Shown here: piece by piece, positions 6,010 to 27,661 of the stretch
Layout of the letters: each line of letters begins with the position of its first letter
How positions within the stretch are numbered: the stretch's first letter is position 1
Assembly: GCF_000016745.1 (NCBI RefSeq)
Contig: NC_009483.1
Coordinates: forward strand, 1,500,001-1,532,000
Reading direction: 5' to 3'
Length of the DNA stretch: 32,000 bases
DNA from: Geotalea uraniireducens Rf4
GTDB taxonomy: Bacteria; Desulfobacterota; Desulfuromonadia; Geobacterales; Geobacteraceae
The notes under the pieces: generated by a model
Told to the model about the DNA's origin: nothing
What the model saw: the letters and a program-made list of their open reading frames with translations, nothing else
The model's database searches: none
Program-made: the position numbers and the translations under genes

Positions 6010-6921
6010 CTATATCGCGCACATGCCCGTTGCAGGGTCGCAGACCATGGAACTGGTTTTAGGTGAAATAAAGTACCCGTTTCCCGCTTCGTGTCGTGTA
6101 ATCAGTTGCTTAGTCAAAAGTGAGTCAACCGCTGACTTCATTTCTTCATCCGTCAGATCGAATGCCATTTGAACTTCAATCGGTGCCACGGAAACATAGG
6201 TTCTTATAAACGCCATGATCGCCTCTTCACTGGCCGGAACCAGGCGTTCGTGGATTGCTCCGTTTGTCAAATATTCCATCACTGCCTTGAACTCTTCATA
6301 TCTCTTGTATCCACGAAGGATGGTCTCCTTCTCACCAAATCGTACGAGGAAAGTGGGATAACCATGGGCTTGATATCGTGCCGTTAGCGCAAGATCCTGC
6401 TCGAATGCCTTTTGGGCGGCGCCACGGGAAAAATCTTCCAGGAAACGGGCAACATCCAGGCCGACTTCTGCTGCCAATTCCACGAGCACTTCGGTAGTAT
6501 TCGTCAACTTCGCCTCGGCAGCTGACGCTTCACGAATACGTCTGAGATACCTGTTTGCCAGCACTTGATCCTGTATCTGTGCGGCTTTATAGGCAATGTT
6601 TTGCGGGTACGTGGACGGGTATTCTTGGGAAAACAGCTTGAATCCTTCGCTTTGTACCGGCATTCCATGGCGTTCGGAGGCTTCCAGCCAATGCTTGGCA
6701 ATGTTTGCATTGGAGCGGGCCGGGTCTCCTCCGATGTCATTGTATCCGTCGTAAAATGACGTGATATCCTTTACCAATCCTGCCATGACAAAACTGATTT
6801 TTACTTGTTCACCAAATCTGGTTTCCAGCTTACGCAGAACTGGTTCGCTGCCCCAGCACCAGGTGCAAACCGGGTCAGTAAATTCGATGATTTCGACAAC
6901 GTTGTTCATGGTTGTAGTCAT
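6010..6921 (-). CDS. DsbA-family thioredoxin-fold protein with a C-terminal extension
   Basis: FTDPVCTWCWGSEP contains a CxxC motif in a DsbA-like N-terminal context. 303 aa. Confidence 0.7.
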   Translation of the reverse strand: MTTTMNNVVEIIEFTDPVCTWCWGSEPVLRKLETRFGEQVKISFVMAGLVKDITSFYDGYNDIGGDPARSNANIAKHWLEASERHGMPVQSEGFKLFSQEYPSTYPQNIAYKAAQIQDQVLANRYLRRIREASAAEAKLTNTTEVLVELAAEVGLDVARFLEDFSRGAAQKAFEQDLALTARYQAHGYPTFLVRFGEKETILRGYKRYEEFKAVMEYLTNGAIHERLVPASEEAIMAFIRTYVSVAPIEVQMAFDLTDEEMKSAVDSLLTKQLITRHEAGNGYFISPKTSSMVCDPATGMCAI

Positions 6922-7022
6922 GACTTCTCCCTTTTCTCATGAAACGGGGCGCCTTCAAACAGACGCCCCGTATATGCTGCTACCAGGTTTTCGCCAGTCC
7001 CGCTGTAGTTCTGTTGCTATGC

Positions 7023-7628
7023 TTAGCTGGACGCTTTGCCAAGGTGACTCAATACTTCCTCGAACAATATCTGGATCAGTTTGGAGCCCACTTCGTTTGT
7101 CCACGATCCCGCCAACTCGGCGATAAGTTGATTGGTCGACGTGAGGGTCACGCCCGCCCGTTCCATGCGCCGCAAGGCGGTTTCATCGGATATCTGGGTC
7201 GGTGAACCGCCGGCATCGACTACCACCTGCACGTTAAACCCTTCCTCCACCGCGCTCATCGCCGGATAAACGACACATACGTCGTTGGTGAGACCCGCCA
7301 TAATCAGGTTCTTCCGTCCGGTAGCCATAACGGCCGCCCTGTAGTTGGGATCGTCAAAGGCGTTCACTACGCCGGCGCGTTTCACCCGGCGTGCGTGCTC
7401 TTCCGGTGCGATCTCCTCCAGGTCTTTGATCAGAGGCCCCTGTGCCTGCTCTTCCATGCTGCTGGTGAGAATCAGGGGCATACCAAGCGCCTTCGCTGTG
7501 CGAGCCAGCGCACGGGTATTGTTCCTGATCAATTCCTGCGGGATGTTTTGGCACCAACCCAAGGTTCCAACCTGGTGATCAATGAGCAGCATGGCAGCGT
7601 TTGTTGCCGTGAATTTCTCGGTTTTCAT
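7023..7628 (-). CDS. Isochorismatase-family (cysteine hydrolase, YcaC-like) protein
   Basis: AAMLLIDHQVG..., LILTSS... and LIMAGLTNDVCVVYPA are typical of the isochorismatase fold. AAAGGAGAC RBS upstream. Confidence 0.8.
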   Translation of the reverse strand: MKTEKFTATNAAMLLIDHQVGTLGWCQNIPQELIRNNTRALARTAKALGMPLILTSSMEEQAQGPLIKDLEEIAPEEHARRVKRAGVVNAFDDPNYRAAVMATGRKNLIMAGLTNDVCVVYPAMSAVEEGFNVQVVVDAGGSPTQISDETALRRMERAGVTLTSTNQLIAELAGSWTNEVGSKLIQILFEEVLSHLGKASS

Positions 7629-7671
7629 GTTTGTCTCCTTTCTTTCGATCTTGTCTTCCTGATTTAATTAT

Positions 7672-7688
7672 AGCGACAACCGTGCCAA
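7672..7688 (-). promoter_or_regulatory. Sigma-54 (-24/-12) promoter upstream of the isochorismatase-family gene
   Basis: The minus strand reads TTGGCACGGTTGTCGCT against the consensus TGGCAC-N5-TTGCW. GG-N10-GC spacing is exact, with one mismatch in the -12 box. The element lies ~45 nt upstream of the ATG at 7628. Confidence 0.65.
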
Positions 7689-7723
7689 GTAAAAACATCA
7701 ATTAAATCAAGGTGTAATGTTTT

Positions 7724-7910
7724 ACAGATCAACCAAATTACTAAATACGGTAATCATTAATTGTTGAATTTGGTAAAACCTAGTAATTTGTTAAATATGA
7801 CAATAGATCTGCTGCAATCATTCGACTACCAGCGGGAGCATTTTCCCCTGGGGGGGGCTATGTTTTGCCGCAGATCAAAGCGGAAAAATCAGAACATTAT
7901 GGTGATTGAC
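7724..7910 (+). pseudogene. Decayed duplicate of the upstream region and first ~50 codons of the sigma-54 activator gene found at 11661-11950
   Basis: 7724-7815 aligns colinearly with 11661-11751. GCGGGAGCATTTTCCCCTGG (7832-7851) matches GCGGGAGCATTTCCCTATGG (11879-11898). Similarity is weaker out to ~7910. The start-codon region (~125 nt) is missing from this copy. Confidence 0.6.
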
Positions 7911-8026
7911 TTTAATGTGAGAATAGCGTACTAACTCTGCATAATCTTGGAGGATTTTGAATATTTGTTTTGATAATTTAATGAGGGCGACATGGTAGCC
8001 TGTTTATTGGCATTTGATAGATGAAG

Positions 8027-8075
8027 AAAAGCCGCTTTGATCAGTATTTTTGCTGATTGAGCGGCTTTTATTTTA
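8027..8075 (+). terminator. Orphan intrinsic terminator hairpin (T-runs on both strands)
   Basis: AAAAGCCGCTTTGATCAG...CTGATTGAGCGGCTTTT is followed by ATTTT. No intact gene ends here. Confidence 0.55.
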
Positions 8076-8109
8076 GGTTTAGCGAACACAAACAAGAGGT
8101 TCAATTGCT

Positions 8110-8946
8110 ATGAAAAACAAGCTGGCGATTTTCGAAGATTATAAAATTCGCAGAGCATATGACGATGAAACTGAAACTTGGTATTTCTCGGTGGTTGATA
8201 TCATCCAGGCATTGCTGCAACAACCGGATTATCAAACAGCTCGGAAGTATTGGAATAAGCTGAAAGAGCGCATGAGCAAGGAAGGGAGTGAGTCGGTGAC
8301 AAATTGTCACCGACTGAAACTGGAAGCGGCTGACGGGAAGAAGTACCTGACTGATGTCGCCAGCCCGGAAACCCTGCTGCGCCTGATTCAATCGGTTCCC
8401 AGTCCCAAGGCCGAACCGATCAAGCTCTGGCTGGCCAAAGTCGGCTATGAGCGGATGCAGGATATGGCCGATCCGGCGCGGTCACTGGACCGGGCAAGGG
8501 AGTACTGGCAACAGCACGGCAGGAGCGAAAAGTGGATCCAGCAGCGGATGATGGGACAGGAGACCCGCAACAAGCTGACCGATTACTGGAAAGATCACGA
8601 CATCAAAAAAGAGACCGAGTTTGCCATCCTGACCAACATCATTCATCAGGAGTGGGCCGGAGTTGCCGTCAAGGAGCACAAGAAGCTGAAAGGGCTGAAA
8701 ACCCAGAACCTGCGTGACCATATGAGCGAAGCGGAACTGATCTTTACCGCCCTGGCCGAACTCTCCACCCGCCAGATTGCCGAGACGATGGCAGCAACCG
8801 GCATGCCTGAAAACAAGGTGGCAGGGAAGAAGGGGGGCGGCATTGCCCGGAAGGCGCGGATTGATCTTGAGGAGAAGACCGGCAGAAGCGTGGTGACCGG
8901 GGAGAATTTTCTGCCGCCGGGGCGAAAGAAGATTTCGGATAAATGA
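8110..8946 (+). CDS. Bro-N domain protein, DinD (DNA-damage-inducible protein D)-like
   Basis: The N-terminal FEDYKIRRAYDDETETWYFSVVDIIQAL is Bro-N like. The C-terminal half (LKGLKTQNLRDHMSEAELIFTALAE...) resembles DinD architecture. The upstream region is AT-rich. Confidence 0.65.
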   Translation: MKNKLAIFEDYKIRRAYDDETETWYFSVVDIIQALLQQPDYQTARKYWNKLKERMSKEGSESVTNCHRLKLEAADGKKYLTDVASPETLLRLIQSVPSPKAEPIKLWLAKVGYERMQDMADPARSLDRAREYWQQHGRSEKWIQQRMMGQETRNKLTDYWKDHDIKKETEFAILTNIIHQEWAGVAVKEHKKLKGLKTQNLRDHMSEAELIFTALAELSTRQIAETMAATGMPENKVAGKKGGGIARKARIDLEEKTGRSVVTGENFLPPGRKKISDK

Positions 8947-9049
8947 AGTGAGCGGGATTGTCAAATGTGTAGCTCCGGTACGGTTGAGCTGTTGACTTTT
9001 TTGTGTGCTTTTTAATACTGTTGCGGCGGGTGCTAACGTGATCTTTTCT

Positions 9050-9202
9050 TTCTTCGACAAATCCATCAACGAATGTAACGTGGCCGGCACCACCGGCAGC
9101 GGCTTCGGTCTCAGCGGGGAAGGGTATTTCCGGTTGTCGGCCTTCGGCCATCGTGAGAATTTGATTGAGGCGGTGGAGAGGATACCAAGGAGTCATGTAT
9201 GA
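9050..9202 (+). pseudogene. 3'-terminal fragment (~50 codons) of a class I aminotransferase gene, LL-diaminopimelate aminotransferase-like; its end is replaced at the cassette junction
   Basis: Reads [45 protein letters not shown], then a non-native tail PRSHV*. No upstream aminotransferase body exists; there is a stop at 8993-8995 in frame. Confidence 0.7.
9113..9184 (+). repeat. 72-bp direct repeat, left copy
   Basis: Matches 9981-10052 at 71 of 72 positions. The single mismatch is at 9161 vs 10029. Confidence 0.95.
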
Positions 9203-9534
9203 TCAAGAACCTGAACGATAGAGAAGAGTTGGCCCTGCGGGATTTTCTGACCAAGGTTGCTCAGCGCTTCGGGGGCAACTACCTCTACAGCCTCATGTTC
9301 GGCTCCAAGGCTCGCGGCGATGCCCACGAAGGTTCCGACCTCGATGTGGCTGTGGTCATGCAAGATGCCGATTTCGAGACCAAGCGCGCCATCTACGCCA
9401 TTGCCTACGACGAACTGCTGGAAAACGAGGTGGATATCTCGCCGGTCATCTTCTCGCGGGATGTGTTCGAGCGCCAGAAAGCCGCTCACTTTCCGTTGCT
9501 TCGTGAGATCGAACGGGACATGGTGCCGTTGTAA
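9199..9534 (+). CDS. Minimal nucleotidyltransferase (MNT-type antitoxin of MNT/HEPN modules)
   Basis: [19 protein letters not shown] matches the GSxxRG...SDxD NTase motif. AAGGAG sits 6 nt upstream of the ATG. 111 aa. Confidence 0.8.
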
Positions 9535-9542
9535 ACGATCCC

Positions 9543-9944
9543 CTGCTCACCGATGATCCAATTGTCTTCCTGATCCAACGGGGCAACGACTCTCTCAAGA
9601 GCGCCGAGGCGCTGGTCGAACTGGACCTCATCCTCGACGGCCTCTCCCGCGCCTACTACGCCGCGCTGCACCATGCACGGGCGCTGCTGCTCTCCATGGA
9701 CATCATCCCCAAAAGTCACAAAGGCACGCTTACACTCTTTTCCTTGCATTTCATCAAGACCGGCATCATCCCCAAGGAGATCGGGGTTATCTTCTCGATC
9801 CTGCAGAAGATCAGGGAGGATTCGGATTATGAGATCGGGACGTTTTACGAGCGGGATGAAGCGGAGAGGCTTCTGGAGGATACCAGGCTGTTTTGCAGGA
9901 CGGTGGTGGCTGTGCTGAAGGCGAGTGGTAAAGGTATGTTATGA
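9543..9944 (+). CDS. HEPN-domain protein (toxin partner of the MNT); start codon unresolved
   Basis: Frame 3 is open from 9507. HEPN-like sequence SLKSAEALVELDLILDGLSRAYYAALHHARALLLS precedes the first ATG at 9696. KIREDSDY lies in the C-terminal half. There is no in-frame ATG, GTG or TTG between 9507 and 9695. Confidence 0.6.
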   Translation: MLTDDPIVFLIQRGNDSLKSAEALVELDLILDGLSRAYYAALHHARALLLSMDIIPKSHKGTLTLFSLHFIKTGIIPKEIGVIFSILQKIREDSDYEIGTFYERDEAERLLEDTRLFCRTVVAVLKASGKGML

Positions 9945-9980
9945 GCTTGGGAAATATGGGAAGTGTCCCGCTTTTTCCCG

Positions 9981-10052
9981 AGCGGGGAAGGGTATTTCCG
10001 GTTGTCGGCCTTCGGCCATCGTGAGAATGTGATTGAGGCGGTGGAGAGGATA
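9981..10052 (+). repeat. 72-bp direct repeat, right copy
   Basis: See 9113-9184. The two copies start 868 bp apart and bracket the MNT/HEPN pair. Confidence 0.95.
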
Positions 10053-10070
10053 AAGATGAATTTGAAGTAA
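9981..10070 (+). pseudogene. Second copy of the aminotransferase 3' end, here with an apparently native C-terminus and terminator
   Basis: Reads [28 protein letters not shown], followed by a hairpin and a T-run. Confidence 0.7.
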
Positions 10071-10083
10071 GATGAAATTGAAC

Positions 10084-10110
10084 GACGGCCAATAAGGCCG
10101 CCTTTTGTAA
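10084..10110 (+). terminator. Putative intrinsic terminator after the aminotransferase remnant
   Basis: CGGCC-AATAA-GGCCG stem-loop followed by CCTTTTGTAATAATTTTT. The stem is only ~5-6 bp. Confidence 0.4.
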
Positions 10111-10134: not shown

Positions 10135-10467
10135 ATGAGAGCGACTGTAGAAGGAAGAGGGATTGCGCATCTTATTCATTTTACAAGGTTCGAAAACCTC
10201 AACAGCATCCTTCAGCATGGCATTAGGCCAAGACAAGTTCTTGATGCTGGTGGAGAAGAATACATATTTAACGATGAGCTGAGGCTTGACGGATGCCTGG
10301 ATGCAGTTTCACTCTCTATTAGTTTCCCAAATTATAAAATGTTTTACCCTTATAGATGTCAAGATTATTCAATAAATTGGGCTGTGTTGAGGCTAAAGTC
10401 TTCGATTTTGTGGGACCGAATTCCGGGGACGGACCGAATTCCCGAATTCCGGGGACACCATACTTAA
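10135..10467 (+). pseudogene. N-terminal fragment of a DUF4433/DarT-like ADP-ribosyltransferase toxin gene
   Basis: GIAHLIHFTRFENLNSILQHGI matches the DUF4433 N-terminal motif. Recognisable sequence ends near residue 95 and runs into a tandem repeat. About half the usual length, with no C-terminal catalytic region. AT-rich. Confidence 0.5.
10413..10456. repeat. Tandem duplication at the DarT-like truncation point
   Basis: GGACCGAATTCCGGGGAC is followed by GGACCGAATTC and then CCGAATTCCGGGGAC. Confidence 0.8.
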
Positions 10468-10470
10468 TTC

Positions 10471-10491
10471 AAAAAGCGGCCAATCGGCCGC
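10471..10491 (-). terminator. Intrinsic terminator of the Fic gene
   Basis: The minus strand reads GCGGCC-GATT-GGCCGC followed by TTTTT, 16 nt after the Fic stop codon. Confidence 0.6.
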
Positions 10492-10506
10492 CTCTGCTGT
10501 TTCAAT

Positions 10507-11556
10507 CTATCTCCCCACCGAATACCACGTCCCCTTACCTGTCCCATGCTGCTCCAGATACCCCTGCTGAACCAGTTGGCGCAGATGCAGCTTGACGGTG
10601 TTGCGATTGGCGGCCAGAAGAGTTACTGCATCGGCAATAGTGATCCTGCCACGCTCCCTGGCGATTGCCAGCATCTTTTCCTCCAGCGGCGCCAGTTTCT
10701 CCAGTAACTGTTCGCGCTCAATCTTGCCGAGCAGGACGTCTTTCTGCTTTTTCAGGCTGGTCAGGAAGAAACGCAGCCAGTTATCGAGATTTTCCTCTTC
10801 GCTCCGGATCAGCTTCTGTGATGCCCGCAGCGCCCGGTAATAACCATCCTTGTTTTCCTCCACGATCCTCTCCAGTGAACTGTACGGCACATGACGGTAG
10901 CCGCTCTGCAGGAGCAGCAGGGTGGTCAGGACACGGGAAAGACGGCCGTTGCCGTCCTGGAACGGGTGGATGGCCAGAAAATGGACGACAAACGCGCCGA
11001 TCACCAGAAGCGGATGCAGTTCTCCTTCCCGCAGGGCGGCCACCGTTCCGCTGACCAGTTCCGCCATCAGTCGCGGGGTGTCGAAAGGGGACGCTGTCTC
11101 GAAAATAACGCCGATGCTCCTGCCATCGGCATCAAAGGCCTCCACGTTGTTAGGCAGTGTCTTGTACTCCCCCCGGTGGGCAGCATCCTTTGTGCTGTAC
11201 TTCAGGGTAATGCCGTGGAGCTGCTTGATATGATTCTCGGTAAAGGGGATATACTCCCATGAATCATGGAGCGTATTCATCGCTTCGGCATAACCGGCAA
11301 CCTCCTCTTCATCACGGGAGCGGAACGGGCGCATTTCCAGATTCGCCAACAGCGCTTCAACCTGAAGGTCGGACAGCCTGGCTCCCTCGATCCTGGTGGA
11401 TGATCCCACGGATTCAATGGTTGCCACTCGTTTGAGCGACGTGAGCTTGTCCGGCGCCAGACGGCCGAGCATGTCCCAGCGCCCCTTGAATTCGTCAAGT
11501 TCGGCGATAAGGTTCAGTATCTGGCTAGTGATGCTGATTGATGAGGTTCTGATCAC
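10507..11556 (-). CDS. Fic-family protein (Fic_N + Fic core + C-terminal winged-helix)
   Basis: HPFQDGNGRLSR matches the Fic motif HxFx(D/E)GNGRxxR. The N-terminal SSTRIEG fits the (S/T)xxxE(G/N) inhibitory-helix motif. GTG start sits 9 nt after AGGAG. Confidence 0.85.
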   Translation of the reverse strand: MIRTSSISITSQILNLIAELDEFKGRWDMLGRLAPDKLTSLKRVATIESVGSSTRIEGARLSDLQVEALLANLEMRPFRSRDEEEVAGYAEAMNTLHDSWEYIPFTENHIKQLHGITLKYSTKDAAHRGEYKTLPNNVEAFDADGRSIGVIFETASPFDTPRLMAELVSGTVAALREGELHPLLVIGAFVVHFLAIHPFQDGNGRLSRVLTTLLLLQSGYRHVPYSSLERIVEENKDGYYRALRASQKLIRSEEENLDNWLRFFLTSLKKQKDVLLGKIEREQLLEKLAPLEEKMLAIARERGRITIADAVTLLAANRNTVKLHLRQLVQQGYLEQHGTGKGTWYSVGR

Positions 11557-11660: not shown

Positions 11661-11751
11661 ACAGATCAACATTATTGCTAAATACGGTAATCAAATATTG
11701 TCAAGTTTAGCAATGTTTTGTAAATTGTTAAATAGGACAACAGAGCAGCTG
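11661..11751 (+). promoter_or_regulatory. Conserved block upstream of the sigma-54 activator gene (duplicate of 7724-7815); candidate enhancer/operator region
   Basis: Shares CTAAATACGGTAATCA and TTGTTAAATAGGACAA (11725-11740; compare TTGTTAAATATGACAA at 7788-7803) with the left copy. Confidence 0.45.
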
Positions 11752-11780
11752 CCGTCAGGTACCTCATAGGGAGAAATAGC

Positions 11781-13310
11781 ATGGCCGTCAGCAGAGATGA
11801 ATTTTTCAGAGAAGTTACCCTCAGGATTTGCAGCAGCCTCCAGATCAACACCGCATTCGGACGAGTGTTCGAGTATCTGCGGGAGCATTTCCCTATGGAC
11901 CACATGTTCCTTGATATCACGGACAAAAGCCTCGGGGTGATTCGCCATATAGCCGTTGCCACTATCGGTACCAAGACCCCCGAGGAGATAATTACTATCC
12001 CTGAAGGGCTCTGGGAATGGGTAAGGAAACTGCAGGTCCCATTTATCCTGACCCCTTCAGATCAGGATGATCGTATTCGAGCATTTGCCCCCCTCATCAA
12101 GCTTGAAGGGCACTCGGATCTGTCGATGCCGCTCAGGATAGAAGAGGAGCTTATCGGATTCCTGGTCCTCCGTGCCAGAGGTGAAGGGAAATTTACTCCC
12201 GAACATGTGGAGTTGCTGGCGACTGTCGCCGAGCCGTTCGCAATAGCACTGGCCAATGTGTTGGCCCACGAGGAAGTAATAAAATACCGGGACATCCTTA
12301 TCGACGATAACCGTTTTCTGAACAGGGAGATTCTTTCCTCGGCGGGCGACGATATTGTCGGAGGGAATTCAGGGCTACGCAATGTGATGGAGATGGTCCG
12401 TCAGGTGGCACCACTAAGCAATACGGTGCTCTTGATGGGGGAAACTGGAACGGGGAAGGAAGTCATTGCCAACGCGATACATTTTGCGTCGCCCCGCAAG
12501 GATGGCCCATTTATCAAGGTCAACTGCGGTGCCATCCCGGAAAGCCTCATCGATAGCGAGTTGTTCGGCCACGAAAAGGGCGCGTTCACAGGTGCGGTTG
12601 CGGCAAAGCGGGGGCGCTTCGAGCGGGCCTCAGGCGGCACCATCTTTCTCGACGAGATCGGCGAACTTCCGCCCCAGGCCCAGGTGCGGCTTCTCCGGGT
12701 GCTTCAAAACCGCGAGATTGAGCGTGTTGGAGGAAGCAAGCCGATCTCCGTTGATATCCGGGTAATCGCCGCCACCCACCGCAACCTGGAACGCATGGTT
12801 TCGGAAAACCGTTTCCGTGAAGACCTCTGGTTCCGCCTGAATGTCTTCCCGATCATCGTCCCCCCTTTGAGGCAGCGGAAAGACGATGTCCCTGCCCTCA
12901 CACGCCATTTTGTGGAACTGAAAAGCCGGGAACTGGGGATAGCTACCCCCCCCGCCATTGCACCCGGTGCGCTGGAAAGACTTATGAACTACGGCTGGCC
13001 GGGAAATGTCCGGGAACTGGAAAACCTGGTGGAGAGGGAACTGATCCGACATCGGGGCGGACAACTGAGATTCGATTCTCTGTTGCCAAGCGAGAGAGGT
13101 GGCGAAACACAACCCGTCACGGAAGGGAAAAGTGGCGGCCCGTTAAACCTCGACGAAGCGATGTCCTTGCATATCGGTAAGGTTCTCAAGATGACCAAAG
13201 GGAAGATTCACGGTCCGGGTGGCGCGGCGGAATTGCTTGGCATCAATCCGAACACGCTGAGGGGGCGAATGAACAAGCTTGGCATAATTTACGGGCGAGT
13301 AAGAAGGTAA
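11781..13310 (+). CDS. Sigma-54-dependent transcriptional activator (GAF sensor + AAA+ + Fis-type HTH)
   Basis: Contains GETGTGKE (Walker A), GAFTGA (sigma-54 contact loop), IFLDEIGEL and a C-terminal AAELLGINPNTLRGRMNKLGI helix-turn-helix. GGGAGA RBS upstream. Confidence 0.9.
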   Translation: MAVSRDEFFREVTLRICSSLQINTAFGRVFEYLREHFPMDHMFLDITDKSLGVIRHIAVATIGTKTPEEIITIPEGLWEWVRKLQVPFILTPSDQDDRIRAFAPLIKLEGHSDLSMPLRIEEELIGFLVLRARGEGKFTPEHVELLATVAEPFAIALANVLAHEEVIKYRDILIDDNRFLNREILSSAGDDIVGGNSGLRNVMEMVRQVAPLSNTVLLMGETGTGKEVIANAIHFASPRKDGPFIKVNCGAIPESLIDSELFGHEKGAFTGAVAAKRGRFERASGGTIFLDEIGELPPQAQVRLLRVLQNREIERVGGSKPISVDIRVIAATHRNLERMVSENRFREDLWFRLNVFPIIVPPLRQRKDDVPALTRHFVELKSRELGIATPPAIAPGALERLMNYGWPGNVRELENLVERELIRHRGGQLRFDSLLPSERGGETQPVTEGKSGGPLNLDEAMSLHIGKVLKMTKGKIHGPGGAAELLGINPNTLRGRMNKLGIIYGRVRR

Positions 13311-25269: not shown

Positions 25270-25447
25270 CAGCAGTGTCCGGTTAGATAATTGCACTGGC
25301 ATCAAAAGCTGTGAAACTATCTTTTTGCACCCTCCCCCAGCCCCTCCCATCGAAGGGAGGGGAGCTTTTATTCCCTCTCCCCTGGTGGGAGAGGGCTAGG
25401 GAGAGGGGGGAATGTGTCGGCTGCAAAAACCTAACCGGACACTGCTG
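25270..25447. mobile_element. 178-bp MITE with perfect 17-bp terminal inverted repeats and a 9-bp target-site duplication
   Basis: The TIR CAGCAGTGTCCGGTTAG (25270-25286) pairs with CTAACCGGACACTGCTG (25431-25447). It is flanked by ATAAAAAGC at 25261-25269 and 25448-25456. There is no ORF. Internal GC hairpins: CCCCTCCC-N6-GGGAGGGG and CCCTCTCCC-N5-GGGAGAGGG. Confidence 0.85.
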
Positions 25448-25568
25448 ATAAAAAGCATTTTAACCACTAATTTTCACGAATTTGCACGAATATACAACCA
25501 CTTGTGATGCAAAAGACCAGTGACGACTCAAGACTTAATATGGGGTTAAAAACATTCGTGTTTATTCG
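25448..25568 (-). repeat. Copy 3 of the CACGAA-arm element, left segment (element is in reverse orientation; it also includes 25258-25269)
   Basis: The reverse complement of 21860-21994 aligns with this segment, including ATATACAACCACTTGTGATGCAAAAG and GGTTAAAAACATTCGTGTTTATTCG. Homology stops abruptly at 25568. Confidence 0.8.
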
Positions 25569-26136
25569 GTACGCCAGGCCAAGCCTGGCTGATCTATCTG
25601 ACTGAAAAGTGTCAGACATGTAAATTGCTCGTTCACCATGTAGTCGCGGTCTGTCACGAGAGGGTAACCAAACGTGGGGAGTAAGACCGGTTCTTTGTAA
25701 GAAAAGAGCGAAGGGTACGATAACTACCCTGACGACGAAGACGCGAGCCCAGCGCAAGCGAACCCGTTTCGGCCTCGTTACACGTAGTTGACAGTGGCCA
25801 ACCTTCCGAATGTGGTGAAGCCTGCCATCCACCGGTGATAAACGAGCGAAAGAACCGGTGGGACTGTCCGGGGTGATTGGGGAGGGCGCGTGTCGAAAGA
25901 TCAGCCGAGGAACCTGGGAGGTCCGACGTAATTCCCAAAGCGAAAGGGTTTCGCCGAAGGGAGAACGCCGACGGGGAATCAATAACCCGCCAAGCGTGTA
26001 CGGTCGGAATTCGGAGCGGCCCATAGTAGCCGGGAAGCGGGGTAATGCCCGTGGAGCCAAGGGGCCGTACTTCAGTCATGTTTACACGGAAAGAGAGGAG
26101 ACCCGCTTGAGCGACAGACGCTCCATAACGGAATGG

Positions 26137-27441
26137 ATGGCCGAAGGATTCGAACCTGAACCCGGACTGCCGGTAAAAGTCTCCCTTCTGCGGTGGAAAC
26201 TGAGCAGCAAGGCCAAACGAGAACCGCAGTTCCGGTTCTATGCCCTTTACGACCGAATCCATCGTCGTGATGTACTTGAAACGGCGTGGTTGCGAGTAAA
26301 GGCGAACAAGGGCGCGCCGGGAGTCGATGGTGTCAGCATTGAATCCATCGAGGTGCGGGCAGACGGAATATCCGGCTATCTTGACGAAATTCAAGAAAGC
26401 CTGAGAACCAAAAACTACAAACCATCCCCGGTGCGTCGCGTCTACATCACCAAGCCCAACGGCAAACTGCGCCCGCTCGGCATACCGTGCGTGCGGGACA
26501 GAATTGTACAGGCAGCCGTACTCCTTATCCTCGAACCGATATTTGAGGTGGACTTTCTCGACTGCTCCCATGGATTTCGTCCCAAAAGGCGTCCCCATGG
26601 AGCCCTCGACCAAGTCGGTAATAACCTCCAACTCGGACGGCAGGAAGTGTATGACGCGGATCTTTCGAGCTACTTTGACAGCATCCCCCACGAGCACCTG
26701 ATAGTAGAACTTGAGCGGCGCATAGCCGACCGGAGTGTCCTCAAACTGATCCGGCAATGGCTTCACAGTCCGGTCAGAGAAGAAGACGGCAGCATCAGCC
26801 GTCCCAAACAAGGGACGCCACAAGGCGGGGTAATATCTCCCCTTCTTGCCAACATCTACCTTCACCGGCTCGACCGGGCCTTTCACGAAGAAGCAGACAG
26901 CCCCTACCACTTCGCCAGAGCGCGCATGGTACGGTTTGCCGACGACTTCGTAGTAATGGCCAGACACATGGGCAATCGCATAACCGGATGGCTGGAAGAG
27001 AAACTCGAAACAGACCTTGGACTCAGCATCAACCGTGACAAAACCGGTATTGTCAGAATGAACAAGAAAGAGAGCCTGAACTTTCTGGGATTCACCCTCC
27101 GCTATGACCGTGACCTGCGGGGCAGAGATTGGGATTATCTCAACATCATGCCGAGTAAGAAGGCCATAGGAGCACTCAAGGGAAAAATCCGGGAGAAGAC
27201 CCGAAGCGGATACAAAAAGCCGCTTGTCGAAGCAATTGCCGAGGTAAACAGCATCCTTCGCGGATGGGGCAACTACTTCGACTACGGGTATCCCCGGAAA
27301 GTATTTCGAGACGTGAATCATTACACGAGGACTCGCTTTCGAATATTTCTGAACAATCGGAGCCAAAGGCGGAGCAAACCCTTCAGGGCAGGTGAAAGCC
27401 TGTATGCCGGACTTAAGCGATATGGTCTGGTTTACCTGTAA
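26137..27441 (+). CDS. Group II intron reverse transcriptase/maturase (no endonuclease domain evident)
   Basis: Contains [69 protein letters not shown] and the X-domain RGWGNYF. The ATG at 26137 is preferred over the 25858 start in the ORF track, which would read through ribozyme domains I-III. Confidence 0.85.
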
Positions 27442-27492
27442 CAGCAAAGCCACAACTCCTCAATAATGCCGTGCAGCAAGAGGCTGATAGGT

Positions 27493-27525
27493 AAGCCGTA
27501 TGCGGGAAATCCGCACGTACGGTTT
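27493..27525 (+). ncRNA. Group II intron domain V
   Basis: AAGCCGTATGCGGGAAATCCGCACGTACGGTTT has the AGC triad, a 2-nt bulge and a GAAA tetraloop. It is nearly identical in pattern to the classical domain V GAGCCGUAUGCG..GAAA..CGCACGUACGGUUC. Confidence 0.85.
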
Positions 27526-27614
27526 GACGAGGGGGAGCTGGTTAAGGCAACTATGGTAAGGCTACTTAGGCACCGCCAAACGAAAGGGGCGGAAACGGAC
27601 AAGCCAAACCTAAT

Positions 27615-27661
27615 GATGTCGTAACCTGCTTCCTACTCTACTGGTTAATTGCTGTTTTTGG
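27615..27661 (-). repeat. Copy 3 of the CACGAA-arm element, right segment after the intron
   Basis: TGGTTAATTGCTGTTTTTGGG (27641-27661) matches the reverse complement of 21811-21831 (TGGCTAACTGCCGTTTTTGGG) with 3 mismatches. Confidence 0.65.

Follow-up and report, generated by a model that had tools for sequence, protein, structure and literature searches.

A copied dapL 3' end separates small toxin-antitoxin cassettes in Geobacterales

Introduction

Integron cassettes are promoterless and depend on the common promoter Pc, and the attC site is an imperfect palindrome with an R'' box (RYYYAAC) and an R' box (GTTRRRY). In complex class 1 integrons, a duplicated 3'-conserved segment lies around ISCR1-borne genes and is explained by recombination of circular intermediates. 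Homology-facilitated illegitimate recombination, said to go back to de Vries and Wackernagel in 2002, and the 'minimal mobile elements' between conserved flanking genes, reportedly introduced by Saunders and Snyder in 2002, are two further precedents. Neither process is known to yield an anchor that is portable and multi-copy, moves along with cassettes and starts new arrays at other loci. Here, a repeat derived from the 3' end of dapL, the gene for LL-diaminopimelate aminotransferase, is described from a 32,000-nt stretch of Geotalea uraniireducens Rf4 (contig NC_009483.1, positions 1,500,001 to 1,532,000, forward strand). This whole stretch is referred to as the window, and coordinates are counted on it. 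In the window, two copies of the repeat enclose a minimal nucleotidyltransferase (MNT) gene and a HEPN frame.

The repeat, referred to as the stump, is a recurrent unit of ~250 nt in the Geobacterales, in which a conserved promoter-like head precedes the final ~155 nt of dapL and a terminator. Small, mostly toxin-antitoxin (TA) cassettes downstream of dapA-dapB-dapL are set apart by stumps that are full or truncated at the 5' end. Tail copies also occur at secondary variable islands, the window among them. What appears there to be a one-off scar is a clade-wide architecture in which a copied core-gene 3' end punctuates arrays of TA and defense cassettes. These descriptive findings are solid, and the mechanism behind them is one that we infer. 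A full-text literature search on dapL, Geobacter, toxin-antitoxin, direct repeats and integrons returned no account of a dapL-derived repeat or of the arrays. The available part of the Geobacter metallireducens genome paper reports many multicopy sequences and, within that part, no dapL 3' repeat. The dapL-tail repeat is apparently widespread and undescribed.

The arrays resemble sedentary chromosomal integron arrays and clusters of attC sites lacking integron integrases (CALINs) in their small, mostly co-oriented, single-operon, TA-rich cassettes, their recurring separator, their single chromosomal anchor and, often, the absence of an adjacent recombinase. They differ in the separator, which is not an attC palindrome but a direct copy of a housekeeping gene 3' end to which a head and a terminator belong, and whose boundaries vary. 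No IntI was found in the 689 kb of loci or in the Pfam census of cassette genes. A second recurrent sequence, the cassette-end element, is without R'' and R' boxes by inspection. The rule that cassettes are promoterless does not hold, as the MNT/HEPN cassette has its own promoter at three loci (L027, L088 and L091) and most stumps end in a terminator.

Cis-mobilizable elements (CIMEs) retain attachment (att) sites and have lost recombination genes (PMC7563491). In streptococci, integrative and conjugative elements and integrative and mobilizable elements accrete in tandem at the 3' end of fda or tRNA-Lys genes (PMC7563491; Bellanger et al. 2011, cited there). The dapL arrays are similar in that they are non-autonomous, form tandem arrays with direct repeats of a conserved gene 3' end and contain no recombination genes. 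The flanking is also of the CIME type, with 72-nt repeats in the window that reproduce the dapL 3' end. However, CIMEs derive from integrase-bearing elements at the same site and have constant att cores, whereas the repeat extents vary here. No parent integrase element was seen at 46 dapL ends (26 with at least 2 kb downstream; the sensitivity is limited), and the units are ten to fifty times smaller than CIMEs.

By analogy, the closest mechanistic precedents would be homology-facilitated illegitimate recombination, minimal mobile elements and the 3'-conserved segment of complex class 1 integrons. With the first two, the dapL arrays share a conserved anchor gene, the absence of an enzyme of their own, and one homologous and one variable junction. 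Unlike the anchors of those processes, the stump appears to travel with the cassettes and to seed arrays at other loci. As in complex class 1 integrons, genes lie between full and partial direct copies and the extent of the second copy is variable, but there is no adjacent ISCR or rolling-circle transposase, and here it is a core biosynthetic gene whose end is duplicated.

Materials and Methods

Ninety-two loci (labelled L001 etc.) were compared with the window. An exact-pattern scan of one genome per species matched 54 stretches, and a head-pattern scan of metagenomes yielded 30 further loci. The 54 stretches are from Geobacterales/Desulfuromonadales only, except for three metagenome-assembled genome (MAG) contigs with other labels. 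Contigs L006, L014 and L048, which carry dapL tails or stumps, belong to MAGs labelled as Actinomycetes, Stenomitos (a cyanobacterium) and Falkowbacteria, and are probably mis-binned Geobacterales DNA. Flanking DNA of 2-20 kb was examined per tail copy, and 689 kb of loci in all were searched for recombinases. Tail and stump classes were assigned from the upstream reading frame of each BLAST match. Positions marked q are on the scale of a 391-nt reference stump (L001, 9940-10330), on which q134 is the -35 motif, q191 the start of dapL homology and q343 the stop. For the cassette census, Pfam was run on 147 same-strand open reading frames (ORFs) of array regions and the 25 commonest families were inspected.

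The dapL-Tail Stump

A protein-database search with the reconstructed 54-aa tail returned 176 matches. All 120 of the matches listed are 52-95 aa long and none of them is full length. Several pairs share one contig. Many are annotated as "LL-diaminopimelate aminotransferase", and such fragments inflate dapL counts in metagenomes. The matches share the N-terminal stretch TFxVxxNTVAAGA(N/D)VIFSFFDKS, where genuine DapL has SWEFFDKLL. Because this non-dapL stretch is shared and is unlike real DapL, all copies trace back to a single ancestral event that fused a non-dapL head to the last ~155 nt of dapL. The origin of the head was sought in the regions upstream of dapL, with no match.

In DNA alignments of 14 and then 33 copies, the unit consists of TTGACTT, a variable spacer of 15-16 nt, AATACTGTTGCGGCGGGCGC and the dapL part to the stop. 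A hairpin terminator follows in most of the 33 copies. The heads fall into two subfamilies. Among the 92 loci and the window there are 47 full stumps, 20 partial tails and 46 dapL ends, intact or edge-cut. Those of the full copies, partial tails and short ORFs that can be assigned to a group are all from Geobacterales. The 72-nt sequence repeated in the window ends 37 intact dapL ORFs of ~410 aa, with a best match of 71/72, which bears out the first-pass annotation in assigning the repeat to an aminotransferase gene 3' end. The tail allele (AGG ATA AAG AAG AAT TTG AAG) was considered as a mobile allele that overwrites real dapL 3' ends. This was rejected: identity among 36 intact dapL genes stays even from end to end and does not shift at the tail.

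The head and terminator fit a promoter-plus-terminator module, as judged from their motifs. The stump is unconvincing as a coding sequence. An alternative is that it is a functional gene, encoding a ~190-nt small RNA or a 54-aa peptide with its own promoter and terminator, which is disrupted in the window and beside which cassettes accumulate. In keeping with this, the -35- and -10-like motifs are conserved around the variable spacer and are followed by the terminator, the 54-codon frame is open in 24 of the 33 copies, and variation in the dapL-derived part is in excess at third positions. RNAalifold also predicts a long-range helix between a pyrimidine tract of the head and a purine tract of the tail. 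However, minor alleles of the head show no codon periodicity (45:52:50 by codon position), 9/33 copies contain frameshifts or stops, and radical substitutions are common. The third-position variation could be inherited from, or exchanged with, real dapL alleles. Only 1/33 predicted pairs shows a compensatory change, and no Rfam family matches the stump. A functional gene is an improbable explanation.

The complementary tracts are TCTTTTCTTTCTTC in the head and GGAGAGGATAAAGAAGAA in the tail, which form an 11-bp predicted helix (alignment columns 62-74 and 204-217). The window counterpart of the head tract is at about 9044-9056. This helix is without covariation and may be a low-complexity coincidence.

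Arrays Downstream of dapL

Of the dapL loci, 26 extend for at least 2 kb beyond the gene, and in 10 of these another tail copy is present. The spacing from one copy to the next is 0.6-3 kb, or approximately one small operon per interval. In L002, dapA-dapB-dapL is followed by BrnT/BrnA, a 55-nt partial tail with terminator, DUF4160/DUF2442 and a full stump. The second half of the array, after this first full stump, is made up of DUF4160/DUF2442 and a 74-aa ORF, another full stump and two more ORFs. Comparable arrays are found in L045, L015, L004, L021, L024, L054, L059, L065, L066 and L070. Among cultured carriers, Trichlorobacter thiogenes ATCC BAA-34 (L024) combines a dapL end with a second tail copy, and Geomobilimonas luticola, Pelotalea chapellei, Geotalea toluenoxydans and Geobacter sp. 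AOG1 have single-match loci.

TA families dominate the census, with MNT (7-8), PhdYefM (6), HepT (5), PIN (5), HEPN (3), DUF4160 (3), DUF2442 (3), BrnA (2), Gp49 (2) and TumE (2). A few defense genes are also present (GmrSD and AbiEii-type AAA). The cassettes are mostly co-oriented. The proposal of the first-pass annotation that the locus marks a preferred attachment site stands in part: the dapL 3' end is favored by small TA cassettes, but no evidence of a dedicated attachment site was found. No match to the tail or head patterns is present in IMG/VR, and the 1.17-kb unit has no blastn match in PLSDB or INPHARED. In L007, L023, L035 and L045, a cassette of GxxExxY / PDDEXK_3 genes with a characteristic conserved 3' flank lies directly upstream of full stumps.

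The Cassette-End Element

In many unrelated cassettes, an element of ~28 nt directly follows the stop codon of the last gene. This cassette-end element has the consensus GGAATTAAGTAnnnTGTCCCCGGAATTC and is also read as GAATTCCGGGGACAnnnTACTTAATTC, with the palindrome-like core CCGGAATTCCGG. It is often joined to a bidirectional terminator hairpin (AAAAGGCGGCCAATCGGCCGCCTTT; AAAAGGCGGCCAATCGGCCGCCTTTGCTGTTTC). It occurs in the window at 10416-10500, in L001 at 18441, in L041, L056, L062, L034 and L028 and in ~20 other loci. In L028 there are three tandem 62-nt units of the boundary element. No Rfam family matches the cassette-end element. The element is followed by a partial tail in L029 (q289), L083 and L059 (q269), L050 (q295) and L088 (q180). 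Together, the stump and this element are easy markers for variable defense loci in Geobacterales.

The Two Tail Copies of the Window

The features of the repeat unit in the window are as follows.

8991-9184, plus strand: left dapL-tail stump copy (BLAST to the L001 stump, q133-325 at 92%)
9113-9184, plus strand: left 72-nt direct repeat (repeat search, shuffles)
9185-9198, plus strand: left junction, GGATA joined to CCAAGGAGTCATGT, identical in L073, L082 and L087
9199-9534, plus strand: MNT gene, 111 aa (Pfam NTP_transf_2 1.3e-08, Polbeta 1.8e-08)
9537-9944, plus strand: HEPN frame of ~135 codons with no canonical start (Pfam HEPN 2e-18)
9948-9977, plus strand: degenerate cassette-end element between the HEPN stop and the right tail copy
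9978-10070, plus strand: right tail copy, 5'-truncated (q251 to stop), which includes the repeat at 9981-10052
10084-10102, plus strand: terminator hairpin of the right tail copy (terminator prediction; terminators follow most stumps)

A repeat search of the window identifies the direct repeat 9113-9184 / 9981-10052, which is identical at 71/72 positions with starts 868 nt apart. Its 44-nt core occurs exactly twice in the window, with 0 occurrences expected (100 shuffles). The repeats enclose the MNT ORF and the HEPN frame, and both copies encode the C-terminus (L/V)IEAVERI. The left copy begins with a non-dapL head that contains the promoter-like TTGACT-N16-AATACT at 8992-9019 (promoter scan and alignments). 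It is dapL-derived from ~9041 (FFDK...) to ...VERI, which includes ~24 more dapL-like codons 5' of the repeat, and it ends at q325 without the last 6 codons, the stop and the terminator. A 65-codon ORF (9005-9202), which has no Pfam match, holds the left copy and ends in PRSHV with a stop that overlaps the MNT ATG. An in-frame TGA lies upstream at 8993-8995. There is no aminotransferase body upstream of the left copy, where the neighbor is a Bro-N gene (Pfam). The full-length class I/II aminotransferase ORF of ~410 aa is absent from the site, which retains only the last ~50 codons. The right copy has the natural end KMNLK and a stop at 10068-10070, followed by its terminator. In all these respects, from the spacing of the repeats and the two gene families between them to the missing aminotransferase body and the ends of the two copies, the first-pass annotation had described the site correctly.

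The two tail copies overlap by 72-75 nt and can be told apart by a single base and by how far they extend. Put most simply, the 72-nt repeats are the overlapping remains of two neighboring stump copies of an array, one 3'-cut and one 5'-cut. The window stump head is closest to the L001 copy (111/120). The 71/72 identity was considered as a sign of recent duplication or gene conversion and rejected, since unrelated genomes match at 69-71/72 over the same segment. A chimerism test of the left copy, comparing a resident L001-like with a donor L073-like source, was uninformative; the differences are mostly private decay of the L073 lineage.

In L001 (a 3.69-Mb assembly), the left flank is syntenic with the window through a Phenol_MetA_deg gene, an isochorismatase gene and the next ~90 nt, at 86-93% identity. 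At this syntenic site there is one uninterrupted stump and no dapL nearby. The first-pass annotation took the stump for the remains of a local gene, later moved or truncated. It is instead a dispersed repeat with a conserved non-dapL head, and it is intact at the L001 site. It is very unlikely that a resident, once complete aminotransferase gene received the TA pair at its extreme 3' end, with a 72-bp duplication and later loss of the gene body. That course of events accords with the dapL origin of the repeat and with the ~24 dapL-like codons before the left copy. However, the head upstream of FFDK is common to 47 stumps elsewhere, so that the truncation is older than the locus, the L001 stump is uninterrupted, and the real dapL of relatives sits in a dapA-dapB-dapL operon.

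The MNT/HEPN Cassette and Its Left Junction

Adjacent MNT and HEPN genes are also present in L027, L088, L090 and L091. L027, a MAG of the Geobacteraceae, has an intact dapL of 410 aa, then the dapL terminator, 45 nt that contain the promoter TTGCAT-N17-TATACT, and MNT/HEPN with 86% identity to the window over 754 nt. The homology begins exactly at window position 9185 (CCAAGGAG). A 78-aa ORF and a full stump follow. The segment 9939-9980 of the window was considered as a remnant of this 78-aa third gene; the cassette-end element is the better match. In L088/L089 the order is dapA-dapB-GGDEF-dapL-MNT-HEPN, and in L088 HEPN is followed by part of an IS110, the 3' part of a HepT gene and another tail copy (q180-343). 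The pair thus recurs with the repeats, following intact dapL and preceding a tail copy, in both L027 and L088, which favors the link made in the first-pass annotation. In L091, the cassette and its promoter follow lptD with no tail copies; therefore, the promoter belongs to the cassette.

In L073, L082 and L087, the segment 8991-9956 of the window is shared at ~90%, with the junction ...GGATA joined to CCAAGGAGTCATGTATG, and the right-hand tail copy is absent. At this junction the MNT ribosome-binding site is joined straight onto the stump. Because the last six tail codons, the terminator and the cassette promoter of L027, L088 and L091 are missing, the left junction is a ~100-bp deletion junction and not an insertion point. 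A clean integration that duplicated 72 bp, as first suggested, does not agree with this deletion or with its occurrence in three loci without the right repeat. The length of the repeat had also been thought too great for a transposase target duplication, and this holds. The 868-bp unit contains MNT and HEPN only, with no transposase and no inverted repeats at its ends, and the overlaps at different loci range from 55 to 164 nt, with no fixed length.

An assembly artefact, in which reads were mis-joined at the repeated 72-mer, is a negligible possibility. The 72-mer is indeed multi-copy in these genomes. However, the left junction is found independently in L073, L082 and L087, the cassette-end element is paired with a partial tail in L029, L083, L050 and L059, and the two window copies are distinguishable by one base and by their extent.

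The MNT is the presumed antitoxin. It has 30 close homologues with 77-97% identity, an exact look-up of the window protein returned no match, and its NCBIfam MntA match is under the cut-off. In relatives, HEPN begins at a GTG whose bases overlap the TGA stop of MNT. A G-to-A change in the window converts TGA to TAA, which keeps the MNT stop, and GTG (9531-9533) to GTA, which removes the HEPN start. The first possible ATG, GTG or TTG in the HEPN frame is at 9696, which the first-pass annotation missed. The window HEPN is probably an inactivated toxin gene. The cassette promoter TTGCxT-N17-TATACT of L027, L088 and L091 is missing from the window, so MNT transcription, if any, would have to start from the stump head, where a transcript would be expected to begin ~7 nt after AATACT, near 9026. 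As the HEPN start is lost and the operon promoter is deleted, the pair is not intact, and the module looks like a decaying TA pair in which the toxin was lost first. In L073 there is a +1 frameshift in the HEPN gene and an in-frame TAG in the stump ORF.

MNT/HEPN pairs of type II/VII are defined by a toxic HEPN protein that MNT neutralizes through AMPylation. The cassette is similar to MNT-HEPN (MntA/HepT-type) modules in that a nucleotidyltransferase gene adjoins a HEPN frame, with a start/stop overlap in relatives. It differs in that its HEPN is Pfam PF05168 and not the HepT-like PF01934, in that the MntA equivalog score is below the cut-off, and in the loss of the HEPN start and promoter.

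Just past the dapL-MNT/HEPN cassette of L088, the stretch 6885-8847 holds part of an IS110-family element, the 3' part of a HepT gene, a tail copy of 54 codons and, 0.4 kb beyond the array, a Y1_Tnp (IS200/RAYT-like) gene of 314 aa. This Y1_Tnp gene is a candidate trans-acting enzyme for the repeats; none was seen in other arrays. At 4867-5940 in L087, 3.8 kb downstream of the L073-type unit of stump and MNT/HEPN, there is a rolling-circle Rep gene (Rol_Rep_N, Rep_trans), which suggests an integrated small replicon near the unit.

Proposed Mechanism of Cassette Movement

The reading favored here, with moderate confidence, is that neighboring tail copies in arrays are the sites at which cassettes were moved by homologous recombination, accompanied by deletions, with no element-encoded recombinase. 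Cassettes would enter, leave and be shuffled by RecA-type homologous recombination between tail copies. Possible routes are a looped-out circle that re-enters by a single crossover, unequal crossing-over, and homology-anchored illegitimate joining of incoming DNA. Deletions would follow recombination, and no recombinase encoded by the element would take part. We infer the homology-driven step from comparisons between diverged genomes.

Homology-driven recombination is favored because no integrase or transposase was found near the arrays and because the repeat boundaries are variable. Common deletion junctions and the lack of matches in the phage and plasmid collections also count against a site-specific or element-encoded reaction. 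The 25 commonest Pfam families of the 147 cassette ORFs include no integrase or transposase, no XerD-like or resolvase-like ORF was found by phmmer in the 689 kb of loci, and no recombinase gene was found near any of 113 copies (46 dapL ends and 67 others). Partial tails begin at q180, 212, 236, 251, 266-274, 289, 295 and 309. In L054, an internally deleted stump lies beside a 5'-cut stump. This locus was considered as a second stump split with a 34-nt overlap, but the sequence reads as an internally deleted and a 5'-cut stump. The gene dapL suits the role of anchor, with ~87% nucleotide identity over its whole length in the 36 intact genes.

An all-against-all indel scan returned mostly the repeats themselves and one clean occupied/empty pair, L002 versus L031. 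In L031 (Geomobilimonas luticola), dapL is followed by its terminator and DUF4160. In L002, dapL has a different terminal allele and a terminator and is followed by BrnTA, the partial tail with its terminator and the same DUF4160 gene. The partial tail and terminator resemble the dapL end of L031. Because these two and DUF4160 match L031, the partial tail of L002 is most readily read as the old dapL end, displaced by DNA that recombined in upstream.

The first-pass annotation proposed site-specific or homology-driven integration. The homology-driven part is favored, and the site-specific part is unsupported given the variable boundaries and the absence of a detected recombinase. As a site-specific event, the tails or the cassette-end element would be att-like, the 72-nt repeats would be attL and attR, and the tyrosine or serine recombinase that uses them would have its gene at another place in the genome. 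In that case the MNT/HEPN unit would amount to a tiny non-autonomous element, like a CIME or an integron cassette in an array without an integrase. Direct repeats of a target gene 3' end are the classic signature of gene-end integrases, the cassettes are mostly co-oriented and of single-operon size, and the cassette-end element is conserved at the junction across unrelated cassette families. The last ~35 nt of the tail are kept in all partial tails. However, the repeat extent varies by cassette, with left extents from q180 to q309. Most partial tails have q312-342 in common. The window left copy ends at q325 and is without the 3' part common to all others. Its junction is a deletion that took the cassette promoter with it. 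Integrase-bearing elements are present at 0 of the 46 dapL ends and 67 other copies, the repeats contain no attC-like RYYYAAC...GTTRRRY palindrome by inspection, and they have no Rfam match. Site-specific recombination is considered unlikely.

Several points weigh against recombination by homology alone. Single-sequence phmmer, together with a census of the top 25 families, can miss divergent or distant enzymes, and a trans-acting recombinase could be encoded elsewhere in the genome, beyond the 2-20 kb flanks. No excised or circular form and no within-species polymorphism were seen, in comparisons that are between diverged genomes only. Readable partial tails adjoin a cassette-end element within 0-5 nt, except in L002, where the flank of the partial tail has none. 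Such a constant junction element is unpredicted by random illegitimate joining and could mark a protein-recognized site. It is the chief finding left unexplained by the favored reading, and it is why a trans-acting site-specific enzyme stays in consideration as a rival. Conservation of the head and of the final ~60 nt of the tail exceeds neutral expectation, a hint that they may serve, for example, as a promoter, a recombination site or an RNA.

A further, tentative and rather doubtful proposal is an integron-like but mechanistically distinct cassette system of the Geobacterales with a portable dapL-tail module, a partner site at the cassette end and arrays that seed elsewhere. The stump would be both a recombination anchor and an expression or insulation unit for TA and defense cassettes, and the palindrome-containing element of ~28 nt would act as its partner in the exchange. 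From arrays that grow at dapL, new ones would be seeded at other loci such as the window, and the reaction would be carried out by host RecA alone or by an unrecognized trans-acting enzyme. If a trans-acting enzyme is involved, this would be a new site-specific system. If homologous recombination alone accounts for array turnover, as in the favored reading, it would offer a simple and general way to build integron-like gene banks and would explain how defense islands nucleate beside conserved genes.

The Island Around the Cassette

Beyond the repeat unit, the variable DNA of the window includes the following features.

7724-7851, plus strand: decayed copy of a sigma-54 activator promoter and first ~40 codons, which pairs with 11661-11898
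8110-8946, plus strand: Bro-N domain gene, directly upstream of the stump and not at this position in L001
10129-10467, plus strand: N-terminal half of a DarT-like ORF (Pfam DarT 3e-4, profile positions 2-100 of 201)
10416-10500, minus strand: two tandem CCGAATTCCGGGGAC units with a cassette-end element and hairpin GCGGCCAATCGGCCGC, which on this strand form the 3' end of the Fic cassette
10507-11556, minus strand: Fic/DOC family gene with a C-terminal winged helix-turn-helix (Pfam, NCBIfam)

The DarT-like ORF, half of an ssDNA ADP-ribosyltransferase gene, has no DarG partner and extends into the boundary repeats. It forms the island's next decayed cassette and is probably what is left of a dead toxin gene. 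With this half gene and the Fic gene, the neighbors of the MNT/HEPN module are likewise fragments or orphans. The sigma-54 activator gene is at 11781-13310. Its repeats (97 nt at 75% and 31 nt at 81%, with a 110-nt internal deletion in the left copy) bracket the whole 3.9-kb island from Bro-N to Fic. A left-type copy also adjoins the isochorismatase gene in L001. The sigma-54 activator duplicate is a second duplicated core-gene end at the edge of variable DNA and is counted in favor of homology-driven exchange.

Elsewhere in the window, a group II intron lies at ~25400-27641 on the plus strand. It contains a reverse transcriptase/maturase ORF at 25858-27441 (RVT_1, GIIM), and its domain V/VI matches Rfam Intron_gpII at 27491-27641 with 52 bits.

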